A stretch of DNA of 32,728 nt from a virus (IMGVR_UViG_3300045988_120863); one strand, 5' to 3'. Positions 100 through 32,728 are shown, counted from the first letter of the stretch. Notes: generated by a model from the sequence alone, not told the origin. Translations and numbers: made by a program.

Positions 100-1131
100 T
101 CAAAGGCTGTTCATGCAGGCCTCGAACACCTCCGCCGCCGTGTGGAAATTGAATATCTTCCGGGGATAATTATTGATCCATTCCTCCGTTTTTTTCAGAG
201 TAGAGGCCGGAATAGTTGCAAAATCTGTCCCTTTCGGGTGCTTGCGGCGGATCATGCCGTTTTGTCGCTCGTTCGATCCTCTTTCCCATGAGCTATACGG
301 GTGGCAGTAATAGACCGTCGTCCGGGCACCTTTCCGCCGACAAGCCTTTTCCATGCCCGCGCAGTCGGCAAACTCCGGGCCATTGTCTACGGTGATCGAC
401 CGAAATACCTTGTAGAAAAGGGCGCCGTATTTGCGCTCGAGCGTGTTTAGGGCCTTTACCACGCTTTCGGTGGTGTTCGTCTTTATCGGGATCATAATTT
501 CATGGCGAGAGAGCCGCTCCGTGAGTACCAGCAAGCGTGGACGGCTCTTTTGTATGCCCTGTACGGTGTCCATTTCCCAATGCCCGAAAGTCTCTCGGGA
601 GTTGATCTCCTCCGGGCGCTGTTCAATGCTCAAGCCTTTAGGGGCCCGGGCCGCACGGACGCGGCGATAGCCCCTCTTTTTTGCCGTCTTATGAGGGAGG
701 TCTTTATTCGTTATCCCGAGGAAAAGGCCGAGGTCGATATAGCGATAGAGAGTGCGGACGGAAATCTCGGTATCGAATACGAGGCCCTTTGCCTTGATCT
801 CGCCGAGGGCGGCCTCCGGCGATCTGTTCCCGCCTTTGATGGCGGCCTCGAGGTATCGGGCGAGGCGGTGATCCTTGCCGATTTTGAGACCCGGCCCCTT
901 GTCCGGGTAGTGATCCTCGTACCGAGCTTGTGCAATATCGGGGATATAGCACTCCCGGTCTATGAGCTCGGTCGTGCGCTGAATACCGAGGCCGCGCTTG
1001 ATCTCCCGGTAGATCGTGGAGACATGGCGGCCCAACTCGTCGGCGATCCGCTGTTTCGACCACCCATCTTTGAGGCGTGTCTCGATAATAAGGCGCTCTC
1101 TCCAAGTCAAGTGCTGGTAGTTTTCTCCCAT
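100..1131 (-). CDS. IS30-family DDE transposase (343 aa)
   Basis: ATG at 1131 has GGAGGG 7 nt upstream; the track ORF starts 8 codons earlier. N-terminal HTH LTWRERLIIETRLKDGWSKQRIADELGRHVSTIYREIKRG. DDE contexts HWEMDTV, ITVDNGPEF and SSWERGSNERQNG are typical of IS30 transposases. Confidence 0.85.
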   Translation of the reverse strand: MGENYQHLTWRERLIIETRLKDGWSKQRIADELGRHVSTIYREIKRGLGIQRTTELIDRECYIPDIAQARYEDHYPDKGPGLKIGKDHRLARYLEAAIKGGNRSPEAALGEIKAKGLVFDTEISVRTLYRYIDLGLFLGITNKDLPHKTAKKRGYRRVRAARAPKGLSIEQRPEEINSRETFGHWEMDTVQGIQKSRPRLLVLTERLSRHEIMIPIKTNTTESVVKALNTLERKYGALFYKVFRSITVDNGPEFADCAGMEKACRRKGARTTVYYCHPYSSWERGSNERQNGMIRRKHPKGTDFATIPASTLKKTEEWINNYPRKIFNFHTAAEVFEACMNSL

Positions 1132-1150
1132 TTCCAAACCCTCCTGGTAA

Positions 1151-1188
1151 ATCAAAGCCCCGCCGCGGCCATGTAGACCGGGCGGGGC
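1151..1188 (-). terminator. Hairpin terminator after the RHH gene, directly abutting the transposase RBS
   Basis: Stem gccccgcc (1157-1164) pairs with ggcggggc (1181-1188). On the minus strand it is followed by TTTGAT, a weak U-tail. Confidence 0.45.
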
Positions 1189-2969: not shown

Positions 2970-3191
2970 TTACTTTCCCTCCTCAGTGGTCTGAGTCCCG
3001 TCCGTGGTGCTCTGTTCGCGCTGGGTCTGAGTGCCGAAATAGAACGCGATCACGACGGCGTACACGGTCATAAAGTCCTGCGCGATTTTGTTCGTAACGG
3101 CGAGGTAGGCAAAAACCGCCGTGAGGGTGATCGTGACAATGGATTTCACGGAGAGGAGGTTTGCGATACGCTTGATGATCTTTTCATTCAT
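2970..3191 (-). CDS. Holin (73 aa, two TM helices, charged C-tail)
   Basis: Internal ATG at 3191 with GAAAGGA upstream. Product MNEKIIKRIANLLSVKSIVTITLTAVFAYLAVTNKIAQDFMTVYAVVIAFYFG... Sits directly upstream of the endolysin. The track ORF's N-terminal extension is Arg/Pro-rich and overlaps the previous gene. Confidence 0.6.
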   Translation of the reverse strand: MNEKIIKRIANLLSVKSIVTITLTAVFAYLAVTNKIAQDFMTVYAVVIAFYFGTQTQREQSTTDGTQTTEEGK

Positions 3192-3211
3192 GGTGTAGTC
3201 CTTTCCCCGGG

Positions 3212-3511
3212 TCAAATCCCGGTGTCCCCTAAATCTTTTGTTGTTGGTTCTTCCTTGTCGTCCTTTTTGAGGACGGTTTTCAGGCATAGCAAGAGGAGCT
3301 CGCCGCCGAAAAAGCCGAGGATCACGCCCAGGAGGGCCGCGGGGTCGTTTCCCGTCCTGGACATGATACGGAGCGCGTACCAGCTCGCCCCGGAGGCGGC
3401 GGCCACACAATAGGCGATTGTCACCTTTGCGAATAGGTGAGGAATTTTCCCGATCCGCTTCACGAGCCGGGAGAGACGAGAGGGCGTTTTCGCCTCATAT
3501 TTCCCGCTCAT
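3212..3511 (-). CDS. Holin-like membrane protein (99 aa, two TM helices)
   Basis: Hydrophobic helices LFAKVTIAYCVAAASGASWYAL and AALLGVILGFFGGELLLLCL followed by an acidic/basic tail. Located in the lysis cassette. Confidence 0.5.
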   Translation of the reverse strand: MSGKYEAKTPSRLSRLVKRIGKIPHLFAKVTIAYCVAAASGASWYALRIMSRTGNDPAALLGVILGFFGGELLLLCLKTVLKKDDKEEPTTKDLGDTGI

Positions 3512-3825
3512 AGCCCCACCCGGGCCAATATGTAGCCCACCACCGCCGCGGTGACGAGGAGGATCACTTTCTCGACGAGGGTTTTCCAGCGGTTCCCCGG
3601 CTCCGCTTCGATCTTCTCCACCTTGCCGGAGAGATCGGAGAGGTCGGTTTTAACCTCCTTGATCGCCTCCGTTTGGTGCTTCTGCTCTTTCGCCATAACC
3701 TCGACCGAGGTCGCGAGGCGGTTTATTGCCTCCGTGCTTTTCTCGAGGTGGTCGAGCCTGTGCGTGTTCGATTTACTGCGGGCCTCCGTCTCGGCCAGCT
3801 TTACGGCCATTTCTTCGCCCGTCAT
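3508..3825 (-). CDS. XhlA-like lysis-associated protein (coiled coil plus C-terminal TM)
   Basis: A long heptad-like region ends in RWKTLVEKVILLVTAAVVGYILARVGL. The architecture and its position upstream of the holins match the PBSX-type XhlA family. Confidence 0.6.
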   Translation of the reverse strand: MTGEEMAVKLAETEARSKSNTHRLDHLEKSTEAINRLATSVEVMAKEQKHQTEAIKEVKTDLSDLSGKVEKIEAEPGNRWKTLVEKVILLVTAAVVGYILARVGL

Positions 3826-4613
3826 GCCGTCACCCCCTCGGCGGTCTTGATCGCCGCTAAAATATCCGCCTTTAGTGTTAAGCCCGTGAGCGCGATCCCG
3901 TTCTCTGAGGCGTACTCCTTGAGCTCCGCGACGGTCATAGCGTCCAGGTCTTTAACCTCCGTCCACCCGTAAACCCCGGGCTCCCATACGTTATTGTCGA
4001 GATCGGACGTCCATTTCTTTTCAGAGTGGGAGACCTTGGCCCCGGCGCTATATGCGTCATGGGCCCCGATGGGCTGGGCCCACTTCGGCCACTCTTCGGA
4101 GGGATCGGCGATCTCGGCCCACAAGCTCGCCGCGGCGTCCGGCGTCCAATTCTCCTGTGAGGTGTGAGCCTGGACGCAACGATAGAGGCGGCCCGCGTGG
4201 AGGCGGATCGCTCCGGCCTTATATGCAACGGGATAGGCCCATTCGGCAAACTGCGAGGCGTTCTCCGCCGCCGTGGTGTCGTCGATCTGTCCCGTCTCGG
4301 CCATAACGGTAAAGACGATAGAGGCGGCCACGGTTGCTTGTGCCATGTCCTCGACCTCCGCCGCGAGCTGTGGCGTGTGATCGGTCTCGACAAGGACGCT
4401 CTCGACCTCATACCACCGATAAAAGAGCCCGTCGCCGGACTCCTCGCGGAGGAGATCGCCGACGATCACCTCGTAGACGCTTACCTTGTCCTCCTGGGTC
4501 TGCGTGAATGTGACGAGGTCGCCCGTGAGGCCGATCTCGGCGTCGGACTTGATACGGAGATAGCGGAGGCTTTTCCCGTTCCGTCTCGTGGTTCCGATCA
4601 TGTACTCGAGCAT
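3822..4613 (-). CDS. Phage protein with two CBM5/12-like carbohydrate-binding repeats and a C-terminal HeH/SAP-like motif
   Basis: YKAGAIRLHAGRLYRCVQAHTSQENWTPDAAASLWAEI and YSAGAKVSHSEKKWTSDLDNNVWEPGVYGWTEV resemble chitin-binding type-3 repeats. The C-terminus reads MTVAELKEYASENGIALTGLTLKADILAAIK. RBS AAGGAG. Confidence 0.5.
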   Translation of the reverse strand: MLEYMIGTTRRNGKSLRYLRIKSDAEIGLTGDLVTFTQTQEDKVSVYEVIVGDLLREESGDGLFYRWYEVESVLVETDHTPQLAAEVEDMAQATVAASIVFTVMAETGQIDDTTAAENASQFAEWAYPVAYKAGAIRLHAGRLYRCVQAHTSQENWTPDAAASLWAEIADPSEEWPKWAQPIGAHDAYSAGAKVSHSEKKWTSDLDNNVWEPGVYGWTEVKDLDAMTVAELKEYASENGIALTGLTLKADILAAIKTAEGVTA

Positions 4614-5668
4614 AATATTCTCTCCTTTCGCGACGCCTCCCGGACGACGCTCTTTATTGTTTTCTCGATAGGCCGGACGTGCTTATCGTAGAGGCTCCAC
4701 CCGGCACAATGCTTTAGCTGTCCCGACCGTGATAAAATTCCCCGTGCCTGGATCGGCGCTATTTTGCGGTGGGCCGCGATCCGTTTCCGGGCCCGGGTGC
4801 ATTGTCTTTTCAGGCGGAGGAGGTTTTTCTTGCGGATCAGAGTTAGGCCCCGTTTGTAGCGGTAGCCGACCGCGTTCACCATGCGTTTGCGGGTGTTGTA
4901 GAGTTGCCAATTCTCCTTTAGGCGGAGGCCCATTCTCCCCAAAAACTCCATGATCGACCGGATCGCCCGATGGAGTTTCTTTTTGTTGTGTCCGAAAATA
5001 GTCAGGTTGTCAATATAACGGACGTAATGACGGACGCCGTCTCCGAGCTTTTCCCGGATATAGTGGTCGAGCGGCTCGAGGACTGCGTTCGCGAGCCATT
5101 GAGAAATGTAAAACCCGATCTTGATACCGTCCTTGATGATCCGCCAAATGAGGCCGAGAAAAGCCTCGTCCTTGATCTTTCGCCGGAGAAACCGCATAAC
5201 CTCTCGCGGAGAGAGGGAGGGATAAAATTTCTTTATGTCCAGCTCGGCGGCGTACTTTGTGCCTTTCTGGTCTTTCTCGAGCCACTTCTCAATAGCTTTC
5301 CGGGCGCGGTGCGGGCCCCGGCCTGGTATGCTCCCGCAACAATAGAAATCCATTCCGCGCATGAGGACAGGGGCCAGGACTTGAACGATCATGTGGTGAA
5401 CGTATTGATCCGGCCATAGGGCGGGCTCGTTGATCTCGCGCCATTTCCCCGCCGTGGAGTCGTAGCGAGGAAATGTCCGGGGCTTTTTCGGGTGGAAATC
5501 CCGTAGGAGTTCGCAAAGCTCGTCCGCCCGGGCCTCTTTCGTGCTCTCCACCCATTGAGCCGTTTTATTCTTCTTCCGGGGCTCATTTACTGCCTCGATT
5601 GCTAAAAGGGCGTTCTCACGGGTGCAAAGTTTCTCCATGAGATACCCGATCCGTTTTGTATTTTTCAT
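4598..5668 (-). CDS. DGR reverse transcriptase (356 aa)
   Basis: Motif A is AAELDIKKFYPSL. The DGR-typical motif is GFYISQWLANAVLEPLD. Motif C is VRYIDNLTIFG. Start set at ATG 5668 (MKNTKRIGYLMEKL...), because the upstream part of the track ORF is the translated TR. Confidence 0.85.
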   Translation of the reverse strand: MKNTKRIGYLMEKLCTRENALLAIEAVNEPRKKNKTAQWVESTKEARADELCELLRDFHPKKPRTFPRYDSTAGKWREINEPALWPDQYVHHMIVQVLAPVLMRGMDFYCCGSIPGRGPHRARKAIEKWLEKDQKGTKYAAELDIKKFYPSLSPREVMRFLRRKIKDEAFLGLIWRIIKDGIKIGFYISQWLANAVLEPLDHYIREKLGDGVRHYVRYIDNLTIFGHNKKKLHRAIRSIMEFLGRMGLRLKENWQLYNTRKRMVNAVGYRYKRGLTLIRKKNLLRLKRQCTRARKRIAAHRKIAPIQARGILSRSGQLKHCAGWSLYDKHVRPIEKTIKSVVREASRKERILCSST

Positions 5669-5817
5669 GCTGTGGTCGCCTTTCGGACGTAAATAATTTT
5701 TCTTATTCACCTCACGGCCTTTCAAATCCATATCGGGCTTACTTGGCCGTGTCCCTGCGGCGAAATTTTCACCGAGCGGTGAGGAAAAGACTACGCGGAG
5801 TTTCGGGTATGGAATAA

Positions 5818-5960
5818 GTAGCCGCGAGCCGAGGTTGGAGTTCGTGCTGGAGGGCGCGTAGTAGCCGTTGAGGTAGAACGGCCCCGCGTTGGTGCCGTTG
5901 TTGTAGTTGCCGCCCACATAGAGCCCACGGACGCCGGAGTTATAGTTGCAATAATCCGGG
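5818..5960 (-). repeat. DGR template repeat (TR), 143 bp
   Basis: 133/143 identical to 6077-6219 at a constant offset of 259. All 10 mismatches are at T on the plus strand, which is A on the coding strand. TR reads as an Asn(AAC)-rich version of the VR peptide. Confidence 0.9.
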
Positions 5961-6022
5961 CCCGGAAAACGGAGACCCCGGTCGCATGGCGTAGCCAGTC
6001 CCTAAATTGCGAGGTTTTTTAT

Positions 6023-6063
6023 GGGGGTTGCGACCCCCAAACCCCCGGGCGGCTTACGCCGCC
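6023..6063 (-). promoter_or_regulatory. Two GC-rich hairpins immediately 3' of VR (candidate DGR target-recognition structure)
   Basis: ggcggc-ttac-gccgcc (6048-6063) has the target stop codon in its loop. gggggt-tgcg-accccc lies at 6023-6038. Neither has a U-tail on either strand. Confidence 0.5.
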
Positions 6064-8108
6064 GAGGGGAGTTTTTGAAGCCGCGAGCCGAGGTCGGAGT
6101 ACGTGCTGGAGGGCGCGTAGCAGCCGTAGAGGTAGAACGGCCCCGCGAGGGTGCCGTCGTAGTAGTTGCCGCCCACATAGAGCCCACGGACGCCGGAGTT
6201 ATAGTAGCAATAATCCGGGACGTAGGTCGTGTCGGAGCCGCCGACCGTGTTCGGGTAGATAAAGGAATTATCGGAGGAGTCATGCCCCCACGCCTTGATC
6301 CACCCGCCCGAGGTCGCTCGCGTGTTGCTTCTTACGGTGGCGCCCGTGCCGTTGTAGGTATCTGCGAAATTCGCCGGGTTGTTGTAGGTGCAAATATTCG
6401 CGCCGGAGAAAATAATTCCGTCGCGCCACTCGAGCACATTTCCCCACCAATTTTCAATATTGCGGTACTGGATCGCGACGTTTCCGTCCGTGCCCGCGGC
6501 GCGGCCCGTGTGGTAGGTCATGGAGTCGGTTCCGCCCGTATTGATAACGGAGCCGGAGTCCACGTTTCCGCGCCCGATCTTGGTTTGTCCGTTCCAGTTC
6601 GCGAACTCGACGAGGTAGAGATACCAAAGCGTGAGTTGCAAGGCGAAATCCGCTTGATAATATCCGGTTCCGAGGGCCTTAATCCCGCTCCTGAACGAGG
6701 AGAGGGAGGTATTCACTTTCGGAGACTGGCCCGTCCTGGACTGATAGGAGGAATTGCACTCGTAGCGGCCAATATAGACGACGTCGCGCTCTCCGACGCC
6801 GTCACCGCGGTCTCGGTGGGCCGGGGAGACCTGGAAACCGTCTGTTGCCTGGTCTGCGATCTGCACCTTAAAGGGCGAGTGCGTCACCTTTACCCAAAAT
6901 TTCGGGATTTTTACGAGGGTGTTATTTCCGTCCGTTACCTTTGTCATGCCCGACCACGGGAGGCAGTTATCAAAGGGAGAGCTCCCGGCCCCGGTTCCCA
7001 CCGCGGGGACGGGATCAGCAAAGAGGGCCGAGTCGTCCGTCCTGGTGAGGGCCGTCGTGCTCGAGCCGTCCCAGGTGACGCCGTAAATACGGACAAAGGC
7101 CGCCGTCACGTTGCAAGTCTTATTCGCAGGGGCGTTGTGGTTGGTGCCCGCGGAGACCTTGATCGTGATAACCGCGGAGCCGCTCTTTTGATTGACGCCG
7201 GAAACCGTGACTTTCGTCCCGCTCACGCTGACGGTGGCGACGCTGGTATTACTGGACTCGGCGGAGATCGTACCGTTACCCGCCCGCGTGACGTTGATCG
7301 TCCCGGTCGGGTTCGAGCTGTCCAGCGTGAGGGAGGTCGGAGAAATGCTCAGACTGCCCGCGGCCTTGCCGATAGTCCAGTTTACGGACTTCGCCGCCGT
7401 GGTTCCGTCGCTCCACTCATAGTTAGAGGTCGGAGTAAAGGTCGCGGCGTAGGTTCCGGCGTTCGTGGCCGACGTCGTCCCGCCGAGCGTCAGTTGTGCC
7501 GAATTGTAGTTGTTCCAGTTCGGCGAGAGCGAGGAGCCCGTATAGGTGAGACTCCCGCTCTGGCTCGGGACGGTGGAGATCACGGCGCGGGAAACGGTGA
7601 CGGGCGTCGTCACCGCCGCCGAGACGCCGTTTTCCGTATATTTCACGGTGACGCTCTGACTCCCGAGGGAGGTAAAGGTCGAGGGGCTCGTCGTGTAGCC
7701 CGTTACTGCCGCCGTGCTCCCGTCCGTATAGGTGGCCTTTACGACCATTCCCGCCGCGGAAAACGCCTCTCCGTAGCGATACGCCGTCTTTGTGGGCGGC
7801 GTGGTGACTGCAATCGAGACGAGTTTCGGGATCACGGTCACGGCCTGGGAGGCTGTGACACTCTTTCCGCCCTCGGTATATCGGATCGTGACACTCGTCA
7901 CGCCGTCCAGCAAAGGCCCGCTCGGCTCCACGGCGTAGCCCGTGGCGGCCAGCTTGGCGCCGTTGGAATAGGTCGCCGTTACCACCATTCCCGCGGGGTC
8001 GAAACTCTCGCCGGAGAGGTATCTCGTTTTCGTGGGCGGCGTCGTAACGGCAATCGAGACGAGCTTGATCCCGCCTCCGCCGCCGACCATGTTATACACG
8101 TTTCCCAT
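6054..8108 (-). CDS. DGR target: tail fibre / receptor-binding protein (684 aa) with Ig-like repeats and a C-terminal variable region
   Basis: It carries two Big_3-like repeats (KLVSIAVTTPPTKT.Y..GE.F..AGMVV.ATY). The C-terminus GGNYYDGTLAGPFYLYGCYAPSSTYSDLGSRL is encoded by VR. RBS GGAGGG. Located at the distal end of the tail module. Confidence 0.85.
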   Translation of the reverse strand: MGNVYNMVGGGGGIKLVSIAVTTPPTKTRYLSGESFDPAGMVVTATYSNGAKLAATGYAVEPSGPLLDGVTSVTIRYTEGGKSVTASQAVTVIPKLVSIAVTTPPTKTAYRYGEAFSAAGMVVKATYTDGSTAAVTGYTTSPSTFTSLGSQSVTVKYTENGVSAAVTTPVTVSRAVISTVPSQSGSLTYTGSSLSPNWNNYNSAQLTLGGTTSATNAGTYAATFTPTSNYEWSDGTTAAKSVNWTIGKAAGSLSISPTSLTLDSSNPTGTINVTRAGNGTISAESSNTSVATVSVSGTKVTVSGVNQKSGSAVITIKVSAGTNHNAPANKTCNVTAAFVRIYGVTWDGSSTTALTRTDDSALFADPVPAVGTGAGSSPFDNCLPWSGMTKVTDGNNTLVKIPKFWVKVTHSPFKVQIADQATDGFQVSPAHRDRGDGVGERDVVYIGRYECNSSYQSRTGQSPKVNTSLSSFRSGIKALGTGYYQADFALQLTLWYLYLVEFANWNGQTKIGRGNVDSGSVINTGGTDSMTYHTGRAAGTDGNVAIQYRNIENWWGNVLEWRDGIIFSGANICTYNNPANFADTYNGTGATVRSNTRATSGGWIKAWGHDSSDNSFIYPNTVGGSDTTYVPDYCYYNSGVRGLYVGGNYYDGTLAGPFYLYGCYAPSSTYSDLGSRLQKLPSAA
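6077..6219 (-). repeat. DGR variable repeat (VR), 143 bp, 3' end of the fibre gene
   Basis: See TR. VR differs from TR only at TR-adenine positions. In TR coordinates these are 5819, 5836, 5842, 5862, 5869, 5889, 5890, 5899, 5902 and 5947. Confidence 0.9.
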
Positions 8109-8110
8109 AT

Positions 8111-8794
8111 TTAACCCTCCACTTTGATTTTCATAATCGAGACCTTGAGGGCCTCGGTCGGTGTTTCTTCACAATGGAATGTGATCTGTCCCGCCGTGGC
8201 GACGCTGTCCGCATGGATCACGGCGGAGGTATAGGCGCCGTAGCTGTCCGGGTCGGGGGTGATGATATACCCGTAGCCGGAGACAACGAGGCCCGCGTTC
8301 TGCACAGTCTGAGCGCCGTTCGACCACCCGCTCACGGGAAGCGTGACGGCGATCTCGTTCGCACCCGGGCCCGCGGGGCCCTGGTCGCCTTGGTCGCCCT
8401 TGCCGCCTTTGAGCTCCCCGGAGTTATATTTCTCCTGAAATGTCTCGCCGTCGTCAAAGGTGACGCCGTCCGCCGTCGCGGTCTTGGCCGCGTCCTTGAT
8501 ATTGTCGATCATGGCCGCATGATCCGCCGCGGTGTAGTTGCGACCGATCAGCTCGCCCGCGTTCCAGGACTTCGCGGAGCCCTCGACGCCGCGGGTACAC
8601 CCGGAGAGGGCGTTTGCCGTCTTGGCGGTATAGAGGATCGTCTCGCCGCCCTCGTCGGTGCCGATTGTGGCGTAGTTCGGAGCGTCAGGAAATGCCGAGA
8701 CGTCCGAGACTTTTATGATGGTGTCCGCCGCGCCGATGGTGTCCGTGAGGGTGGCTTGAGGCGAGAACGGAATACCGTAATACATGGGTTTCAT
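8111..8794 (-). CDS. Tail fibre protein with a short collagen-like segment
   Basis: ATG at 8794 has GGAGG upstream. Five G-X-Y triplets (GGKGDQGDQGPAGPG). Sits between Tal and the DGR target. Confidence 0.5.
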   Translation of the reverse strand: MKPMYYGIPFSPQATLTDTIGAADTIIKVSDVSAFPDAPNYATIGTDEGGETILYTAKTANALSGCTRGVEGSAKSWNAGELIGRNYTAADHAAMIDNIKDAAKTATADGVTFDDGETFQEKYNSGELKGGKGDQGDQGPAGPGANEIAVTLPVSGWSNGAQTVQNAGLVVSGYGYIITPDPDSYGAYTSAVIHADSVATAGQITFHCEETPTEALKVSIMKIKVEG

Positions 8795-8808
8795 GGGTTG
8801 CACCTCCG

Positions 8809-10761
8809 TCAAACTGTGTTATCGCCGCGGGACTGTATGAAGCCCTGGACGATAAGGTCGATACTGATATAGGCGAGGTCGTCCGGCCTCACCTCGAGCG
8901 ATAGCCAGCTCCCGCGGGGGATCATGTTGTCCGAGCCTACCAAAAAGGCCGTTATATCGAGCTCGGCATTTCTCCCGGCGAAATCCGCCTTTTTCTCCCC
9001 GTTGACGTAGAGGGAAAAATTCTGAGGGTTGCCGTACTCGAAAATGCCGGGTGTGATCTTGTGCTCGTGGCCGGGTATCGTGACCTTATGGGAATGGCCG
9101 GGGATCGTAATATCGTGCGTATGGGCCGGGATCGTTACCTTGTGGGAGTGATCGTCGATCTCTACCTCGTGATTGTGCCGCGGGATCGTGATTTCGTGGT
9201 CGTGCTCTCCGTGGGAGTGGGCGCCGGACTCGATAAAGGTCGCGTAGCCGTCCGCGATCACGTTCCCGTTGGCGTCCTTTCCGCCGTAAACGGCCAGCTT
9301 TACGCGGTCGGGTATGCCGTGGTTATGCTTCGCGGCGTTATACATGGCCGCCTCGGTCGGATAGATGTTTTCGGCGGAAAGAATAACCGCGGTCGCCGTG
9401 AGCGTCTTTTTCGCCTCGTAGGTGGTGGAGGTGTACGTCCCGCCGCCCGAGGTGGTCGTCGCGGTGGTTCTGCCGCCCGACGAGCTCGTCCGGGTGTCCT
9501 CGTCGCTCGTGCTCGAGGTGATGGTCTTACTCTCCGCCGCCTCCGTGGCCTTGGAGTATGCGCGGAACTTTTTCATGCGTACCTTTACGAGGACTTTATT
9601 CACGATCCGCATTTCCGAGGGGAGAAAGAAATCCATTGTCGCCCCGGAGTCCGGGGCGCTGTTGGCTTGGAGGGCTTGACTGTAAATCTGCGTCGCGCCC
9701 TGTGCGTAGGTCTGCTCGATCCGCTGACGATCCGCCATATCGGCCAGAGAGGCCGCGATAGAGGTCTCCCGGTTGGCGACGGTGATCGTGGACTCTTTCA
9801 AATCGTCCCGTTTCCTGGTTAGCTCGGTTATGTAGGTATCGACGGAGTCCCCGACCTCCGGGAAGATAATACGGACGCGCTTTCCGATTGCGGCCTTATC
9901 ATAGTCCGAGGCCGTGAGTTCGTGAAAACCCACGGAGTAGGAAACGAGCGGCTCTTGCAGTTCTGAGAGCATGATCTCCGCCGCCGCCTTGAGGGAGGCC
10001 GCGTCCTCATACCGCCGATCTATCCACACCCTTTCAATGATCCCGTACTTGTCCGTGATTTCTTTCGGGCTCTGAATGTACGGGACGCCGTCGTTTACGC
10101 CCTTAATATTGAGCTGGTTTATGCCCTCGCCGTAGCCCAGCGGATAAAGCCGGGTAACGATATTCTGAGGATCACGGCCTCGTGTGTAGCTCGTCATATT
10201 GTAGCGGCGCCGGACGTACATTTCAGGCCGCCCGGTCGTGACGAGCTTTTTCAGGGAGAGGCGCCACGGGTAAACGGTGGTATCTGTGACGATCATAGGG
10301 GACGAGAGCGGAGAGAGGACGGAGAAAAGCGCCGAGAGGAGCGACTCTTGCTCCCACCCGTATTCAAATTGATTTCGGAAATCGCACTCGTCGAGCACCC
10401 AATTTTTCACGAGCTGGTGATCCAGGATATAACGGATCACGTCGGCTGTGTAGACGCCCAGGTTTCCGACGACATGGTAGCCGAAAAGGACATTGTCGAT
10501 CAGCGTCGCGAGGACGTGCTCGCATTGATAGGAAATCCCGCCCGACTCGGAGACGGAGAGGGTCTCCGGCATGATCCGATAGAGCTCCCCGCCGTCCGGG
10601 CGGACGTAATAGAACGGCTTACAATACTCGTTTTTCGAGTCTCCGTATGGGAGGGAAAAATAGAAATACCACACGGAGTTGATTTTCTGCGACTCGGAGG
10701 CCGCGTAGGCGTTCTCGAGGATCGCCACGCGCCGCCGCGTCTTGTCGAATACTTCAATCAT
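8809..10761 (-). CDS. Tail-associated lysin-like / tail tip protein (Tal, Prophage_tail-type N-terminus) with a His-rich repeat region
   Basis: The N-terminus MIEVFDKTRRRVAILENAY...YQCEHVLATLIDNVL matches the siphophage minor structural / tail endopeptidase type. Seven HxH motifs lie at 9046-9219. Confidence 0.7.
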   Translation of the reverse strand: MIEVFDKTRRRVAILENAYAASESQKINSVWYFYFSLPYGDSKNEYCKPFYYVRPDGGELYRIMPETLSVSESGGISYQCEHVLATLIDNVLFGYHVVGNLGVYTADVIRYILDHQLVKNWVLDECDFRNQFEYGWEQESLLSALFSVLSPLSSPMIVTDTTVYPWRLSLKKLVTTGRPEMYVRRRYNMTSYTRGRDPQNIVTRLYPLGYGEGINQLNIKGVNDGVPYIQSPKEITDKYGIIERVWIDRRYEDAASLKAAAEIMLSELQEPLVSYSVGFHELTASDYDKAAIGKRVRIIFPEVGDSVDTYITELTRKRDDLKESTITVANRETSIAASLADMADRQRIEQTYAQGATQIYSQALQANSAPDSGATMDFFLPSEMRIVNKVLVKVRMKKFRAYSKATEAAESKTITSSTSDEDTRTSSSGGRTTATTTSGGGTYTSTTYEAKKTLTATAVILSAENIYPTEAAMYNAAKHNHGIPDRVKLAVYGGKDANGNVIADGYATFIESGAHSHGEHDHEITIPRHNHEVEIDDHSHKVTIPAHTHDITIPGHSHKVTIPGHEHKITPGIFEYGNPQNFSLYVNGEKKADFAGRNAELDITAFLVGSDNMIPRGSWLSLEVRPDDLAYISIDLIVQGFIQSRGDNTV

Positions 10762-26022: not shown

Positions 26023-26460
26023 CTAAATGGAGGCGAGAGCCCCCGCCCCATAGTACAAAACCGCAAAGGCCGCGACGGCCTTATTCCTGAGATCATAGAT
26101 CGACGTCTTGGAGCTATACGAGAGCTCGTCCGCGATCTGCTCTTTACTCTTGTGCTCGATATACCATGCACGGAGGAGCTCGGCGTCGGCGTCGTCCAGT
26201 TGAGCGAGGACGCGGTCGATCTCCGCTATCGTGCTCCGGGTGGCTACGATCTCCCGGTTTATCTCGGCCAGTTCCAGGCGGGCGGAGGTATGCGCGTTGA
26301 TACCGCCGCTCGAGGCATAGGGCCGAGGCTTGATATTATCTCTCTCGGCCTTTGCCTGAGTGGAGGCAAGCTCACGCCGCCGCCCGAGGTTCTCGAGTGC
26401 TTGCTCAAGGTTTCCGCGCTGTGCAAGCAATCTCTCGGCGGCTTTGAAATAATTTATCAT
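26023..26460 (-). CDS. Sigma-70 region-4-like HTH protein (putative late-gene activator)
   Basis: The C-terminus reads LLRAWYIEHKSKEQIADELSYSSKTSIYDLRNKAVAAFAVL. It lies just upstream of the packaging module. Confidence 0.5.
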   Translation of the reverse strand: MINYFKAAERLLAQRGNLEQALENLGRRRELASTQAKAERDNIKPRPYASSGGINAHTSARLELAEINREIVATRSTIAEIDRVLAQLDDADAELLRAWYIEHKSKEQIADELSYSSKTSIYDLRNKAVAAFAVLYYGAGALASI

Positions 26461-26861
26461 ATCCGTTTCCCTCCGTGGCGGTATTCGCGTCCGAGGTTGT
26501 AGCGGTGTTTTGCCATGACAACGGCGTCAACGTCTACCCCGAGCGCGGCCATGAGGTCGAGGGTTCGGAGGATCACGTCGGCCAGCTCGACCGCGATCCC
26601 CTCCGGCTTGCAGGCTCCGGCCTTTTCTCCTCCGGCGTCAGGGTGGCCCACGTTCTCACAAGTGAGGGCAAAATCGCAATCGTCCGGCGAGAGCGCACAC
26701 GTCCCATAGACGAGAGGGCTCCCGTTTCTGTATTCCTCGAGAGCCTCGGACAGTTCGCCGTGGATCAGGCAAAGGGCCTCCGGGAGAGAGGGCGGCTTTT
26801 CCCACCACCCATGATTGACCGCGTTCTCGTGGACTTCCTTTGCGAGCTCGTTAATATTCAT
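26457..26861 (-). CDS. MazG-like nucleotide pyrophosphohydrolase
   Basis: ATG at 26861 with AAAGGAG upstream. Contains LIHGELSEALEEYR and GIAVELADVILRTLDL helices. Confidence 0.6.
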   Translation of the reverse strand: MNINELAKEVHENAVNHGWWEKPPSLPEALCLIHGELSEALEEYRNGSPLVYGTCALSPDDCDFALTCENVGHPDAGGEKAGACKPEGIAVELADVILRTLDLMAALGVDVDAVVMAKHRYNLGREYRHGGKRI

Positions 26862-26928
26862 AGCTTGCACTCCTTTCCCTGGGCTTCGTTCCCAAACTTT
26901 ACGCATTTACAAGGCCATAAAAGGCCGA

Positions 26929-28582: not shown

Positions 28583-28758
28583 TCCGCCGCCACCTCCTCG
28601 AGGAGCTCAAAGGTACACTCGCGGGCGATCTGCGTCCAGCGGGCGGCCCACTTTCTCGCGGCAGAGATCACGGCCTCGTATTTCCGCGGGCCCGTGACCT
28701 CGACAGCGCCATAGGCCGGGTGAGATACTTTCCAACGATATACGGGCTTTTTATTCAT
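28579..28758 (-). CDS. Hypothetical protein (59 aa), not in the supplied ORF track
   Basis: ATG at 28758 with AGGAGG upstream. ATGA overlaps at both ends. Product MNKKPVYRWKVSHPAYGAVEVTGPRKYEAVISAARKWAARWTQIARECTFELLEEVAAE. Confidence 0.5.
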   Translation of the reverse strand: MNKKPVYRWKVSHPAYGAVEVTGPRKYEAVISAARKWAARWTQIARECTFELLEEVAAE

Positions 28759-29135
28759 AAGTCCGCCTCCTTTGTGATCCCGTGTGTTGGCTCCTCGTAA
28801 CTTCCATATACGAGACTCGAATAATACCCGACCATGTCAATTTCAAGTGCCCGGTCGTCGATATAATAGTCGGCGTAGACCTTGCGGCAGTTGTTTCCAT
28901 ATCGGGAGACACATTCCGGGAGATTGTCGTTTACTGCGTCGAACTCGAGGCCGTGATCCTCGCACCATTTCACCGCCGCCGCCAAATCGTCTCCAATTCG
29001 ACACGTCCATAGAATGAGACGGTCTCCGGCTCGGCGGATTCGCTTCGCAAAGTCCAGCACGTCAGGCTTCGGCGCTCCTATGCGCGGGTATTCATCAAAA
29101 CAAAGGGTTCCGTCAAAGTCGATTGCGTAAATCAT
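28755..29135 (-). CDS. HAD-superfamily hydrolase-like protein (126 aa)
   Basis: N-terminal motif I is YAIDFDGTL. A C-terminal YIDD supplies an acidic motif. Confidence 0.5.
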   Translation of the reverse strand: MIYAIDFDGTLCFDEYPRIGAPKPDVLDFAKRIRRAGDRLILWTCRIGDDLAAAVKWCEDHGLEFDAVNDNLPECVSRYGNNCRKVYADYYIDDRALEIDMVGYYSSLVYGSYEEPTHGITKEADL

Positions 29136-30744: not shown

Positions 30745-30995
30745 TTTGTTGCTTTTCCGCCGATGGTGACGAGGAGGATCGGGGCCGGAGTGTCCGGCCA
30801 GTCGTCCACGTCAGCGGTGATCCGCTCGACGATGTTATTTCCGCACACCTCGACGCACCGCGTTTTTTCGAGTTCCTCGACCGTGCCTCCGGCCACCGCC
30901 TCAGAAATATCGGCTCCGAGGTGGTGGATCACAAAGAGGCGTTCTTTCGGTAGGAGCAGGGCCATGAGGCCGGATAGGGTGAGCTTGTTATTCAA
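30741..30995 (-). CDS. Hypothetical protein (84 aa; start uncertain)
   Basis: TTG at 30995 has AGGAGG 9 nt upstream. The alternative ATG at 31013 has no RBS. Confidence 0.35.
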   Translation of the reverse strand: MNNKLTLSGLMALLLPKERLFVIHHLGADISEAVAGGTVEELEKTRCVEVCGNNIVERITADVDDWPDTPAPILLVTIGGKATK

Positions 30996-31881
30996 TTTCG
31001 TATTCCTCCTCATAGTCTGCAAGATCGGAGAACTCCATTTGTCCCGGGAGTACCCCGTCCTCCATCCACCAATGAAAACAGTCAAGCCCGGTTCGCCAGT
31101 CTGTCGGGAGATTTCGGCGGAGGCGTTCTTTAATCATGTTGTCAAACGCCCGAATATACATTTTTTCGTATTGTGGATAACGGAAAAACTCTTTTTGTCG
31201 TCCCGCTGTTCCGGCCATAGGACACCCAATGCACCCGACCCGTGAATAACCGCACTCGTAGAGGGGATTTATTTCGATCTTTTCGGCCTCGATATAATCC
31301 CAAACGTCCGAGTCTTTCCAATCGACGATAGGGTTACAAATCCGCTTCGCCTTTAGGGTGCAAGTCTCAAATAAACGGCGGCGGTCGTCGTTGTCGTTAT
31401 TCAATATCACTTTTTTGGAGATGTCCGAGGGCATGGTCTCATATATTCCGCGGCTATTTTTCCGCTTGACCGACTCGGCCCAGCGAACGCCCGTTGTGAT
31501 AAAGCGTCCGCTCCCGCCGCGTTCTTTTAATACAGAACAGCAATAGCGAACGAGCCGGGTCGGTGGCATGAGCTTTTGCGGGATCAGGTTCCACATGGAG
31601 GTACGCTTTCCTTTGTAGACGGGCATATTTACGGCGCATTTTATTCCCTTGTCCTCGAAGTGCTGGAATTTCTTGCGGATAAAATAGACCGTCTCGGGCG
31701 CGTCCGCGGTTGTGTGATTGTGCATAACTTCAAACGGTATTCCCGCCCGCTCGGCGAGGTGAGTACAAATCGAGCTGTCTTTTCCGCCTGAGTCAGTAAT
31801 TACGAGGGGCGTCTTGTAAACTTGGAGGGCCATTTCCGACGCGGCGCGGAGGCGTTGGATTGCGGTTTGCTCTAAATCCAT
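30988..31881 (-). CDS. PAPS-reductase-family (ATP-PPase fold) protein, 297 aa
   Basis: Start at ATG 31881 (MDLEQTAIQRL). The P-loop-like motif is VITDSGGKDSS. CNPIVDWKDSDVWDYI and a Cys cluster GCIGCPMAG are also present. Confidence 0.65.
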   Translation of the reverse strand: MDLEQTAIQRLRAASEMALQVYKTPLVITDSGGKDSSICTHLAERAGIPFEVMHNHTTADAPETVYFIRKKFQHFEDKGIKCAVNMPVYKGKRTSMWNLIPQKLMPPTRLVRYCCSVLKERGGSGRFITTGVRWAESVKRKNSRGIYETMPSDISKKVILNNDNDDRRRLFETCTLKAKRICNPIVDWKDSDVWDYIEAEKIEINPLYECGYSRVGCIGCPMAGTAGRQKEFFRYPQYEKMYIRAFDNMIKERLRRNLPTDWRTGLDCFHWWMEDGVLPGQMEFSDLADYEEEYEIE

Positions 31882-32108
31882 GTGCCCGAGCCTCCTTTTT
31901 CGGCCCAGCGCACGACCCCGCGAGGAGTAACGCAAACGTCGTCCTCGGCCTCTTGCTTTAGCCACTCGTCCCACATAATCACCGTTTCGGGATCAGGCAT
32001 TTTCAGTTTATAAGAGCACCCTTTCGCCTCGAGGGCGTCGTCCTGGATCATGCAAAGGAAATCCGCTAAATTCTGCGGGCTTTGTGTCACGATCTGAAAA
32101 TTTGTCAT
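31872..32108 (-). CDS. Hypothetical protein (78 aa)
   Basis: ATG at 32108 forms an ATGA overlap with the upstream gene. The track's N-terminal extension is Arg/Pro-rich. Confidence 0.45.
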   Translation of the reverse strand: MTNFQIVTQSPQNLADFLCMIQDDALEAKGCSYKLKMPDPETVIMWDEWLKQEAEDDVCVTPRGVVRWAEKGGSGTWI

Positions 32109-32384: not shown

Positions 32385-32639
32385 TTATATGGCCGCCTGT
32401 CGTTTGCCGCGGGACTTCTGAAAATTCCGCTCGGCGGTGATCTGCGCGACCTTTGCGCTATACACGCGGAAACCGTACTTGTCTACGGCCCCGGTATAAC
32501 CGTTCCTCAATTCGCGGTAGATCGTCGCGGGGTGGACGCCGATTTTCTCGGCTATGAGGGCCACCGGGGCCCGGTCATTGTGGAGCCGCTCAATAGTCGC
32601 CCGATCTTCCGGCCCGATGTATCGGAGTTTTTGGCCCAT
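32385..32639 (-). CDS. Stand-alone IS30-type HTH (HTH_38-like) DNA-binding protein, 84 aa
   Basis: ATG at 32639 with AAAGGAGG upstream. IGPEDRATIERLHNDRAPVALIAEKIGVHPATIYRELRNG aligns with residues of the transposase N-terminus at about 14/41 identities, including the TIYRE core. Confidence 0.7.
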   Translation of the reverse strand: MGQKLRYIGPEDRATIERLHNDRAPVALIAEKIGVHPATIYRELRNGYTGAVDKYGFRVYSAKVAQITAERNFQKSRGKRQAAI

Positions 32640-32660
32640 TTCTCCGGCCTCCTTTCGTGT

Positions 32661-32713
32661 AAAATAAAAAAGTGAAGTGCGTCCGAGGCCTTGCGACCTC
32701 TTTCGCACTTCAC
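32661..32713 (-). terminator. Strong rho-independent terminator downstream of the transposase gene (spans the assembly repeat)
   Basis: On the minus strand: GTGAAGTGCG-aaa-GAGGTC-gcaa-GGCCTC-gga-CGCACTTCAC followed by TTTTTTATTTT. Confidence 0.7.
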
Positions 32714-32728
32714 TATACAATCAACATA
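32674..32728. repeat. Terminal direct repeat, copy 2 (exact duplicate of 1-55)
   Basis: 55/55 identity with the window start. Confidence 0.95.

Follow-up and report, generated by a model that had tools for sequence, protein, structure and literature searches.

Evidence for a tail-fibre-diversifying retroelement with no detectable Avd gene and a YIDN reverse transcriptase in a temperate siphovirus of gut Oscillospiraceae

Does a reverse transcriptase (RT) gene lying next to a pair of near-identical repeats, one of them inside a tail-fibre gene, mark a diversity-generating retroelement (DGR), and how closely does it follow the known pattern? The question is raised by a 32,728-nt stretch of viral DNA (IMGVR_UViG_3300045988_120863; hereafter the window, with positions counted from its first letter), in which an earlier note had described a complete DGR acting on the tip of a tail fibre. 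Our analysis leaves us highly confident that the locus is a DGR of a temperate siphovirus of gut Oscillospiraceae, diversifying the tail-fibre tip. DGRs that act on the tail fibres of gut phages are well documented, and the kind represented by Bordetella phage BPP-1 is well known; the departures from the BPP-1 paradigm are the lack of a detectable Avd gene and the YIDN active site of the RT.

Results

Template and variable repeats

Re-alignment of positions 5818–5960 with 6077–6219, at an offset of 259, reproduced the gapless 143-bp alignment described previously, with exactly 10 mismatches over the 143 nt. All 10 lie at the positions listed in the earlier note, and in the template repeat (TR) each is a T on the plus strand, i.e. 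an A on the coding strand, while the 113 non-adenine positions are identical without exception (113/113, 0 differences), just as had been counted. With a probability of 4e-8 for all ten mismatches falling on A, the reported adenine-only pattern is confirmed as real. The tally of 30 coding-strand adenines in the 143 nt of TR also held (18 of them within nine AAC codons), and the peptide translations of both repeats agreed with those given earlier.

An independent repeat finder returned a slightly shorter pair, 5820–5960 and 6079–6219, at 94% identity. The mismatch left outside, 5819/6078, is located 3' of the GC-rich block CTCGGCTCGCGGCT common to both repeats and is found in the same state in every relative, so that we regard it as a fixed flank difference of the IMH/IMH* type and not as a product of mutagenesis. 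One of the ten adenine-restricted differences is consequently a boundary difference, and the corrected repeat is 141 nt long and ungapped, with 9/9 differences on coding-strand TR adenines. Repeat finder and re-alignment together thus define a non-coding TR at 5820–5960 (minus strand, 29–30 adenines) and a variable repeat (VR) at 6079–6219 (minus strand, nine A-to-N changes relative to TR). When both strands of the window were scanned and scored on non-A positions, only TR and VR reached 113/113, against a background maximum of 53/113, and VR is therefore single.

Reverse transcriptase, spacer RNA and repeat flanks

TR lies downstream of VR at a spacing of 118 nt and adjacent to the RT gene, upstream of it, with 150 nt between its end and the RT start codon. 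The RT is encoded at 4598–5668 (minus strand, 356 aa) and was recognised by Pfam (RVT_1), PHROG 1423, a PDB match and its homologues. A longer listed version of this ORF (4598–5917, 439 aa) was rejected, as its start falls inside TR; judging from the homologues, the true start is most likely the ATG at 5668. A DGR-typical SQWLANAVL motif had been noticed earlier in the RT that follows TR; motif 4 of the enzyme, IGFYISQWLAN, fits the [I/V/L]GxxxSQ signature of the DGR clade, group II and retroviral RTs having QGxxxSP (PMC7826257). The closest PDB relative was the BPP-1 enzyme bRT (8ub7, E 5e-17), ahead of retron and group II RTs (E 2e-10 for the latter), and phage matches by tblastn included the DGR phages BPP-1, VHML, Hankyphage, crAss-like, FP_Epona and Idris; motif, PDB match and phage matches all place the enzyme in the DGR clade.

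Between TR and the RT start, at 5699–5781 (minus strand), Rfam detected a full-length structured RNA, RT-18 (RF03021), scoring 69.9 bits (gathering score, 41.3) and present at the equivalent position in 11/11 relatives tested. By analogy, it is the positional counterpart of the BPP-1 spacer (Sp) RNA, which belongs to a distinct family, RT-10 (PMC5737381), and it may likewise have a role in priming (PMC5737381, PMC6182149).

At the 3' end of VR sits a GC-rich IMH-like block, CCTCGGCTCGCGGC (6080–6093, minus strand), whose copy in TR (5821–5834) is identical. Immediately beyond it the flanks part company, continuing as TCAAAA... on the VR side and ACTTATTC... on the TR side, and these flanks are constant in all close relatives; the arrangement of a common GC-rich block followed by differing flanks is that of IMH and IMH*, and a corresponding function is suggested by BPP-1 (PMC5758913). 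Two predicted hairpins provide the GC-rich inverted repeat that is expected to follow VR but not TR. Hairpin A (6039–6074, minus strand), directly 3' of VR, has the outer stem AAACTCCC/GGGGGTTT enclosing an inner hairpin, GGCGGC-GTAA-GCCGCC (6048–6063), and carries the stop codon of the target gene within its loop; its stem, CTCCC(C/T)...GGGGG, is kept in 18/18 diverged loci. Hairpin B (GGGGGT-CGCA-ACCCCC, 6023–6038, minus strand), a candidate cruciform or target-recognition element, occurs with its CGCA loop in 23 loci; its closing pair covaries (CG 7, UA 5, AU 3, GC 1). Both hairpins (6023–6074) are conserved across the 18 diverged loci, with compensatory changes in hairpin B.

Accessory genes

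No Avd, 23S_rRNA_IVP or four-helix-bundle match was obtained among the window ORFs tested (Pfam, NCBIfam, PDB sequences), nor could avd be accommodated in the mere 118 nt that separate VR from TR. The word "complete" therefore has to be qualified: RT, TR, VR, RT-18 RNA, IMH-like block and hairpins are all in place, but a recognisable Avd gene is not. This gene is not universal among DGRs, being present in 74% and lacking in 26% of the 372 surveyed by Wu et al. 2018 (PMC5758913). Their avd-less systems and the present one are alike in having no recognisable avd, HRDC or MSL gene, a situation which, in the proposal of those authors (PMC5758913), implies Avd-independent mutagenic homing.

It is conceivable, if fairly unlikely, that the cassette nonetheless needs an Avd-like or other factor, supplied by the phage from beyond the window, by the host, or by a gene too diverged to be recognised. 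Avd is essential in BPP-1, where bRT is inactive without it (PMC6182149); sequence conservation among Avd proteins is very poor (PMC5758913), which makes negative HMM searches weak evidence, and several small ORFs in the window have no assignment. Against such a dependence stand, besides the negative searches, the VR–TR gaps of the relatives (mostly about 75–230 nt, too short for avd), the lack of an annotated avd in the cultured relatives FP_Epona and Idris, and the finding of Wu et al. that genomes with avd-less DGRs have no distal avd (PMC5758913).

The gene immediately 3' of the RT encodes a 263-aa acidic protein (3822–4613, minus strand), its start overlapping the RT stop by 16 nt. Its N-terminal domain of ~90 aa gave no family match and is followed by CBM_5_12 and SAP domains; its positional equivalent in the sister clade with YxDD enzymes is a Phage_tail_APC tail-fibre assembly chaperone. 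Some avd-less DGRs carry an acidic gene, CH1 (Wu et al., PMC5758913), with which the present ORF could not be equated. We doubt that this ORF forms part of the DGR; more probably it is a phage gene of the usual kind, associated with the fibre.

The target protein and its place in the tail

VR occupies codons ~630–677 at the 3' end of a 684-codon gene (6054–8108, minus strand; ORF, Pfam, PHROG and AlphaFold model) and encodes the ~48 residues that precede the C-terminal tail of the protein, which bears out its earlier placement near the C-terminus of a 684-aa Ig-repeat fibre. The N-terminal region of the protein contains two Big_3 Ig-like domains (Pfam) and further beta-rich repeats, and the domain carrying VR spans ~aa 335–684. 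The C-type-lectin fold that the earlier note had proposed to look for was recovered in a confident AlphaFold model of aa 335–684 (pLDDT 89.6, pTM 0.92), on which the VR residues are predicted to be displayed. Its best PDB fold matches by Foldseek (TaqVP, Mtd, FGE and TvpA) were all DGR variable proteins or FGE. The nearest was TaqVP of Thermus aquaticus (PDB 5vf4; E 5e-10, TM 0.55), which shares the C-type-lectin/FGE-like fold with a C-terminal VR, but is only 15% identical in sequence and is a cellular protein outside any phage fibre, without Ig-like N-terminal repeats. Mtd matched less well (E about 1e-3, TM about 0.32), and no PDB sequence match linked the target to Mtd at E ≤ 0.1. Membership of the Mtd family was rejected on both grounds, and the designation "Mtd type" applies to function and fold class, the nearest structure being TaqVP: on the model, the target has the fold class of Mtd and would work like it while standing outside its family.

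The genes run in the order TMP, Dit, Tal, target and lysis genes, which places the target at the distal end of a siphovirus tail module, as had been stated. Prophages in Firmicutes bacterium CAG:124 and Lawsonibacter point to a host in the Firmicutes, family Oscillospiraceae (gut Clostridia), in keeping with the Gram-positive-type siphovirus previously suggested. The target itself belongs to PHROG 5302 ("tail protein", E 1e-61) and matches a "tail collar fiber protein" in BFVD (TM 0.9). Synteny, family labels and predicted fold together point to a tail-fibre, receptor-binding role, through which changes in VR would switch tropism.

An alternative role as an adhesion or decoration protein, whose Ig-like and lectin domains would bind mucus or other environmental glycans and leave host range unaffected, seems to us unlikely. 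The Big_3 domains would suit such a protein, and some DGR targets of Faecalibacterium prophages resemble Hoc-like mucus-adherence proteins (PMC11792537). However, the gene is situated between Tal and the lysis cassette and not in the head module, the PHROG and BFVD matches both name tail proteins, the sister clade has its fibre assembly chaperone immediately 3' of the cassette, and in one related locus (L013) the target is joined to the upstream, fibre-like 233-aa protein as a single 850-aa ORF.

Active-site substitution and diversification in relatives

In place of the canonical YxDD box, motif C of the RT reads YIDN (codons at positions 5006–5017), aligned with YMDD of bRT. In other RTs, Asn for the second catalytic Asp of this motif is expected to impair catalysis, and the locus could in principle be a relic, its enzyme dead and its VR/TR differences inherited from a YxDD-bearing ancestor. 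The relatives make this very improbable. Y-x-D-N is found in 115/120 of the closest RT homologues and is kept in 51 loci with intact ORFs, down to about 44% RT identity; each of 41 non-redundant YxDN loci has adenine-specific VR differences. Moreover, genomes with 98–100% identical RTs and identical TRs carry different VRs, and diversification must therefore postdate the D-to-N change. On these sequence patterns, the YxDN clade is evidently active despite the substitution. A-to-C changes are almost absent from it (4%, compared with 26% in the YxDD sister group).

The layout and the adenine-only pattern were found again in dozens of related prophages. Among seven related IMG/VR loci, 88/90 VR/TR differences fell on TR adenines, and the same was true of 888/913 mismatches across the 70 loci that passed an 80% filter (window included). 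TR is identical in loci L002–L011, whose VRs differ. The target protein belongs to a 90% cluster with 2,735 member sequences, and in 14 near-identical targets 19/49 VR codons vary, compared with 17/635 elsewhere (Fisher p = 1.6e-14), all 19 corresponding to A-containing TR codons (p = 3e-11). Since near-identical targets vary almost only at such codons, the lineage appears to be actively diversifying, with variation confined to TR-adenine positions among assembled genomes.

There is virtually no chance that we are dealing with an ordinary duplication or gene-conversion tract that diverged at random, with an unrelated RT of the retron or group II intron type beside it: a direct repeat does exist, but nothing further speaks for this, and the adenine specificity of the differences, repeated in about 70 loci, refutes it. 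Against it stand also RT scores far below the NCBIfam cut-offs for group II (TIGR04416, 70.8 bits versus 300) and retron (St85, 54 versus 235) enzymes, and an Rfam search of the window that gave RT-18 only and neither intron RNA domains nor a retron msr/msd.

Discussion

If the locus operates after the manner of BPP-1, the TR–RT-18 transcript would be reverse transcribed by the RT, with priming probably from within the structured RNA and with copying faithful save opposite adenines, and the resulting cDNA would take the place of VR. The GC-rich IMH-like block, the VR-specific flank and the hairpins after VR would give this transfer its direction. As many as about 20 codons could be rewritten, most of them AAC, TAC and TAT; they are predicted to lie on the ligand-binding face of the C-type-lectin-fold domain at the fibre tip, and rewriting them would change receptor specificity.

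Several features are shared with the BPP-1 system (mtd-VR/avd/TR/brt). Both RTs belong to one clade and carry the [I/V/L]GxxxSQ motif; in each system TR precedes the RT gene, a structured spacer RNA separates the two, and a tail-fibre gene bears at its 3' end a VR with adenine-only differences. A GC-rich IMH-like block and inverted repeat after VR and a C-type-lectin-fold variable domain are likewise common to both. The present element differs from BPP-1 in lacking a detectable avd, in the mere 118 nt separating VR from TR, in having RT-18 instead of RT-10 as its spacer RNA and YIDN instead of YMDD as motif C, and in a target with no sequence similarity and just a weak fold match (TM about 0.32) to Mtd. 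BPP-1 is also a podovirus, whereas the present phage is a siphovirus with a Gram-positive anaerobe as host.

Closer in host are the cultured Faecalibacterium/Butyrivibrio phages FP_Epona (MG711462) and Idris (MN882554), which infect related Clostridia; Lagaffe, Roos and Pioen are further cultured phages of the same comparison group with DGRs (PMC11792537). The cultured phages share the gene order target-VR, TR, RT, small ORF, (XkdX), holin and endolysin, and in FP_Epona and Idris 13/13 and 17/17 mismatches, respectively, fall on TR adenines. Their RTs, however, are only 35–47% identical to the one described here and keep the canonical RYMDD, and their VRs do show A-to-C changes (2/13 and 4/17). 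FP_Epona further differs in its contractile-tail context, with a P2-like baseplate; its target carries the annotation of a BPP-1-like major tropism determinant.

Template and variable repeats

Computed alignment of 5818–5960 with 6077–6219 (offset 259, ungapped) returned 10 mismatches, at 5819, 5836, 5842, 5862, 5869, 5889, 5890, 5899, 5902 and 5947, and at every one of them the template repeat (TR) has T on the plus strand, i.e. A on the coding (minus) strand. Coding-strand adenines account for 30 of the 143 nt of TR, with 18 of the 30 held by nine AAC codons, while none of the 113 non-adenine positions differs between TR and the variable repeat (VR); the chance of 10 random mismatches all falling on A is 4e-8. 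These mismatch positions, the adenine count and the lack of non-adenine differences had been reported in the earlier note and were reproduced exactly when its re-alignment check was run. An independent repeat finder returned the pair as 5820–5960 and 6079–6219, both on the minus strand. Of these mismatches, the one at 5819 falls 3' of a GC-rich block (CTCGGCTCGCGGCT), where VR is flanked by TCAAAA... and TR by ACTTATTC... in all close relatives, without exception; since it is unchanging, we regard it as a fixed IMH/IMH*-type flank difference, not a mutagenesis event. All 10 differences described earlier are therefore on template adenines, but one belongs to the flank, and the true repeat is 141 nt long with nine A-to-N changes.

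When the whole window was scanned on both strands by scoring non-A positions, TR and VR alone reached 113/113 (background maximum, 53/113), so the retroelement has a single VR, and no second or remote copy was found in the window. TR is in frame with the reverse transcriptase (RT) gene, with no stop codon between them, and gene callers consequently report a 439-aa 'RT' starting inside TR. The homologous proteins P0001 and P0002, both 439 aa, result from the same TR-included calling, which is an annotation artefact.

A DGR-type reverse transcriptase with an atypical motif C

The RT ORF as called (4598–5917, minus strand, 439 aa) begins within TR; RT homologues start at the equivalent of the ATG at 5668, giving a 356-aa protein (4598–5668). 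This protein matches Pfam RVT_1 and PHROG 1423 ('reverse transcriptase'), and its closest solved structure is the RT of the diversity-generating retroelement (DGR) of Bordetella phage BPP-1 (8ub7, E 5e-17), with group II intron and retron RTs behind. The DGR RT signature IGxxxSQ (PMC7826257) is present as IGFYISQWLAN. Identity as a group II or retron RT was rejected, the respective NCBIfam models scoring far under their cut-offs. A tblastn search of the deposited phage genomes returned 125 records, including the DGR phages BPP-1, VHML and Hankyphage, crAss-like phages, and the cultured phages FP_Epona (Faecalibacterium) and Idris (Butyrivibrio); blastn against the deposited phage genomes found no close relatives, only short weak matches. 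The SQWLAN motif, the PDB match and the DGR-phage matches together bear out the earlier claim that a DGR-type RT follows TR.

Motif C, encoded at 5006–5017 (minus strand), reads Y-I-D-N, not Y-x-D-D, with Asn-221 aligned to the second catalytic Asp of the YMDD box of bRT, the BPP-1 enzyme. RY[I/M]DN occurs in 115 of the 120 closest homologues, at identities down to 46%. D-N is found in the 51 fetched related loci whose RT identity is about 44% or higher, and canonical D-D in the next RT group (41% identity or less, 29 loci); the fetched Y-x-D-N loci are L001–L051 and L053. When the 150 nearest representatives of 50%-identity clusters were compared, 23 had D-N and 77 D-D. By these alignments, YxDN is a property of the clade. 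No YxDN RT was found in a cultured phage (FP_Epona and Idris both have YMDD), and a full-text literature search for YMDN, YIDN and YxDN, which does not reach supplementary alignments, returned no relevant paper.

Substitution spectrum at template adenines

The two RT groups differ in the outcome of adenine mutagenesis, as compared on VR/TR pairs of the window and of L002–L089. In YxDN loci (n = 41 non-redundant, 530 substitutions), 55% of changes were A-to-G, 42% A-to-T and 4% A-to-C, compared with 38%, 36% and 26% in YxDD sister loci (n = 21, 228 substitutions; chi-square p = 4e-20), bearing in mind that these spectra come from VRs after selection, that targets differ somewhat between the clades and that the comparison is phylogenetically one contrast. 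In AAC, the second A had changed to C in 1 of 451 cases (0.2%) in the YxDN clade, against 26% for A-to-G. For bRT, G misincorporation, which yields A-to-C, amounts to 22–26% and peaks in the NAC context (PMC12875486).

The missing A-to-C changes cannot be put down to genome GC content, since low-GC YxDN loci also lack them and high-GC YxDD loci have them. Selection on the encoded residue would need Thr (AAC-to-ACC) to be counter-selected everywhere while Ser (AAC-to-AGC) is common, which seems unlikely, so that a mutational bias is the simpler reading of the A-to-C scarcity. Taken further, it is possible, if rather doubtful, that the spectrum is intrinsic to a clade of RTs active in vivo without the accessory protein Avd, which would almost never insert dG opposite A. 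The clade in question is sizeable, covering no fewer than 23 of the 150 nearest clusters at 50% identity, and sits mostly in prophages of Oscillospiraceae and other Clostridia. If the spectrum were an enzyme property, the clade would serve as a natural experiment for finding out what determines how adenine mutagenesis turns out, and would also inform how a DGR RT functions without Avd.

Apparent absence of avd and the ORF downstream of the RT gene

The gap between VR and TR is 118 nt in the window and about 75–230 nt in most relatives, so short that it leaves no room for an avd gene. Pfam searches of about 45 window ORFs gave no match to Avd or a four-helix bundle, and Avd was likewise not matched by NCBIfam (small unassigned window ORFs) or in a concatenated PDB-sequence search, where scFv matches were artefacts of the inserted glycine linkers. 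Avd is essential for bRT activity (PMC6182149); however, the protein is missing from 26% of surveyed DGRs, for which Wu et al. proposed a mechanism independent of Avd (PMC5758913). The DGRs of FP_Epona and Idris share the avd-less layout of the window. The clade appears to function without a protein that is essential in the sole biochemically dissected DGR.

Nearly all loci carry a small acidic ORF that overlaps the stop codon of the RT gene (3822–4613 on the minus strand of the window; 7140–7796 in L016 and 7022–7513 in L052, two related loci). An acidic accessory gene, CH1, has been described in avd-less DGRs (Wu et al., PMC5758913). A CH1-like role is doubtful here: the likeness is by description, and the post-RT ORFs form two unrelated families, of which the sister-clade one encodes a chaperone for tail-fibre assembly (Pfam Phage_tail_APC, PHROG 4912). 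The product of 3822–4613 has an N-terminal domain of ~90 aa, for which no family match was found, followed by CBM_5_12 and SAP domains. As the families are unrelated and one is a chaperone, the kept position of the ORF is best explained by placement of TR–RT between the fibre gene and its usual downstream neighbour, an arrangement that adds support to the fibre assignment of the target.

Target protein and tail context

Pfam places two Ig-like Big_3 domains in the 684-aa target (6054–8108, minus strand), which contains VR, and PHROG 5302 ('tail protein') is a further match; no relative was found in the PDB by sequence. An AlphaFold model of residues 335–684, built with 36 homologues, reached pLDDT 89.6 and pTM 0.92, and its best PDB fold matches were all DGR variable proteins or their FGE relatives: TaqVP at the top (E 5e-10, TM 0.55), FGE and TvpA, and variants of Mtd, the BPP-1 protein (E about 1e-3, TM about 0.32). 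In BFVD, the model matched 'tail collar fiber' proteins of gut phages (TM about 0.9) and also tail fibres of crAss-like phages. The C-type-lectin fold that the earlier note proposed to look for is confirmed by the model and its PDB matches; its assignment to the Mtd type holds for that fold, but the nearest fold neighbour is TaqVP, not Mtd.

The late operon (minus strand) runs TerL, portal, protease, capsid, connector, tape measure (1,122 aa), Dit, Tal (Prophage_tail / tail spike), a 233-aa protein, target, TR–RT, a 263-aa protein, an XhlA-like protein, a putative holin (called by position only, without a family match) and endolysin. This siphovirus order, with the Big_3 domains and the PHROG match, agrees with the initial description of an Ig-repeat fibre within the tail module. 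In the related locus L013, a homologue of the 233-aa protein and the target form a single 850-aa ORF (3044–5596), the window counterparts of which are two genes, 8111–8812 and 6054–8108, suggesting that the two proteins may be parts of one fibre. The homologue of the 233-aa protein holds a short collagen-like G-x-y run. Together, genomic context and predicted fold support well a putative tail-fibre and receptor-binding role for the target.

Structured RNA and hairpins flanking the repeats

Between TR and the RT start, a full-length match to the Rfam family RT-18 (5699–5781) scored 69.9 bits (gathering score, 41.3), and RT-18 was present at the same position in 11 of 11 relatives tested. In the work of Weinberg et al., RT-1 to RT-19 are orphan motifs found close to RT genes; RT-10 was noted to separate TR from brt in BPP-1, and it was speculated that further members of the series are parts of DGRs (PMC5737381). 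RT-18 sits here exactly where BPP-1 has RT-10, which gives this orphan family a genomic role as a TR–RT spacer RNA in DGRs of Firmicutes phages.

Directly after VR, the spacer folds into two hairpins. Hairpin A (6039–6074) has the target stop codon in its loop and a CTCCC(C/T)...GGGGG stem in 18 of 18 diverged loci; hairpin B (6023–6038; GGGGGT-CGCA-ACCCCC) recurs with compensatory changes of its closing pair (CG 7, UA 5, AU 3, GC 1). Both correspond to the GC-rich inverted repeat of BPP-1, which promotes homing according to passages in PMC5758913 and PMC3240598. An A-run instead of a T-run follows hairpin B, and a scan of the VR–TR spacer for terminators or promoters gave nothing beyond shuffle expectation. 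A sub-threshold match to the Rfam GP20-b RNA at 6012–6070 (minus strand; 23.1 bits, gathering score 36.2) overlaps both hairpins and probably reflects just these.

Diversification within the lineage and its hosts

The 90%-identity cluster of the target comprises 2,735 distinct sequences. Across 14 full-length members, 19 of 49 VR codons were variable, with up to 8 alleles per site, compared with 17 of 635 codons outside VR (Fisher p = 1.6e-14), and all 19 were among the 21 adenine-containing TR codons (p = 3e-11). In seven IMG/VR loci with 76–100% identical RTs, 88 of 90 VR/TR mismatches fell on TR adenines, and loci sharing an identical TR carried different VRs. For 70 loci from viral and GTDB genome collections, the window included, the figure was 888 of 913, entry having required at least 80% of mismatches on A. 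The locus is very probably the DGR of an actively diversifying lineage. Metagenomes in which the phage occurs include the IMG samples 3300029246, 3300045988 and 3300029584. The same prophage was found in Firmicutes bacterium CAG:124 (98% RT identity) and Lawsonibacter sp. (93%), and hosts of the wider RT clade, from genome matches, are mostly Oscillospiraceae and other Clostridia.

In function and layout, the element is a BPP-1-like DGR that acts on the tail fibre of a phage. All but two of the defining features open to testing were found, the exceptions being the canonical YxDD box and Avd, which some DGRs do without. Comparable DGRs on tail proteins of gut phages have been documented well, among them examples from prophages of a related genus, Faecalibacterium, for which activity was again deduced from adenine-specific differences between cognate genomes (PMC11792537), and the DGR target of FP_Epona is annotated as a BPP-1-like tropism determinant. 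The element is therefore of an already known sort and, as such, ordinary. It adds a well-supported, evidently active DGR in the under-studied Oscillospiraceae, for which cultured lysogens exist. Lawsonibacter sp. LCP25S3_E2 carries the 93% identical RT, and Butyricicoccus pullicaecorum DSM 23266 and Bacterium D16-76 carry RTs with YMDN. The one aspect of specialist interest could be the avd-less, A-to-C-poor YxDN clade: this combination offers a testable lead on mutational spectrum and minimal Avd-free systems, of use to DGR biochemists and to those engineering DGRs for directed evolution.

Variant loci and other genes of the window

Several short tandem VR/TR-like segments lie upstream of the RT (about 4800–5900) in L075, L076 and L077, YxDD-clade loci from MAGs of uncultured Bacilli, Bacillales and Tenericutes; these may be multi-VR or degenerate cassettes. 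In another genome, the TR-ORF/RT (protein P0022) is cut at residue 265 and continues as an rve transposase, a junction suggestive of inactivation of the DGR by an IS insertion. Homologue P0125 lacks VR, spacer and TR, so that target residues 1–609 run straight into the RT, and in P0014 the RT is fused to the 263-aa protein encoded downstream; both are either natural deletion/frameshift variants or assembly errors.

Within the window, an IS30-like transposase (HTH_38 + rve) occupies the left end (100–1155, minus strand) and an HTH_38-only ORF the right end (32385–32720, minus strand). Auxiliary genes, all on the minus strand (26457–26906, 28755–29135 and 30988–31974), comprise a weak match to a MazG-like pyrophosphohydrolase, a BT0820-family HAD phosphatase-like ORF under the family cut-off, and a PAPS-reductase-domain protein.
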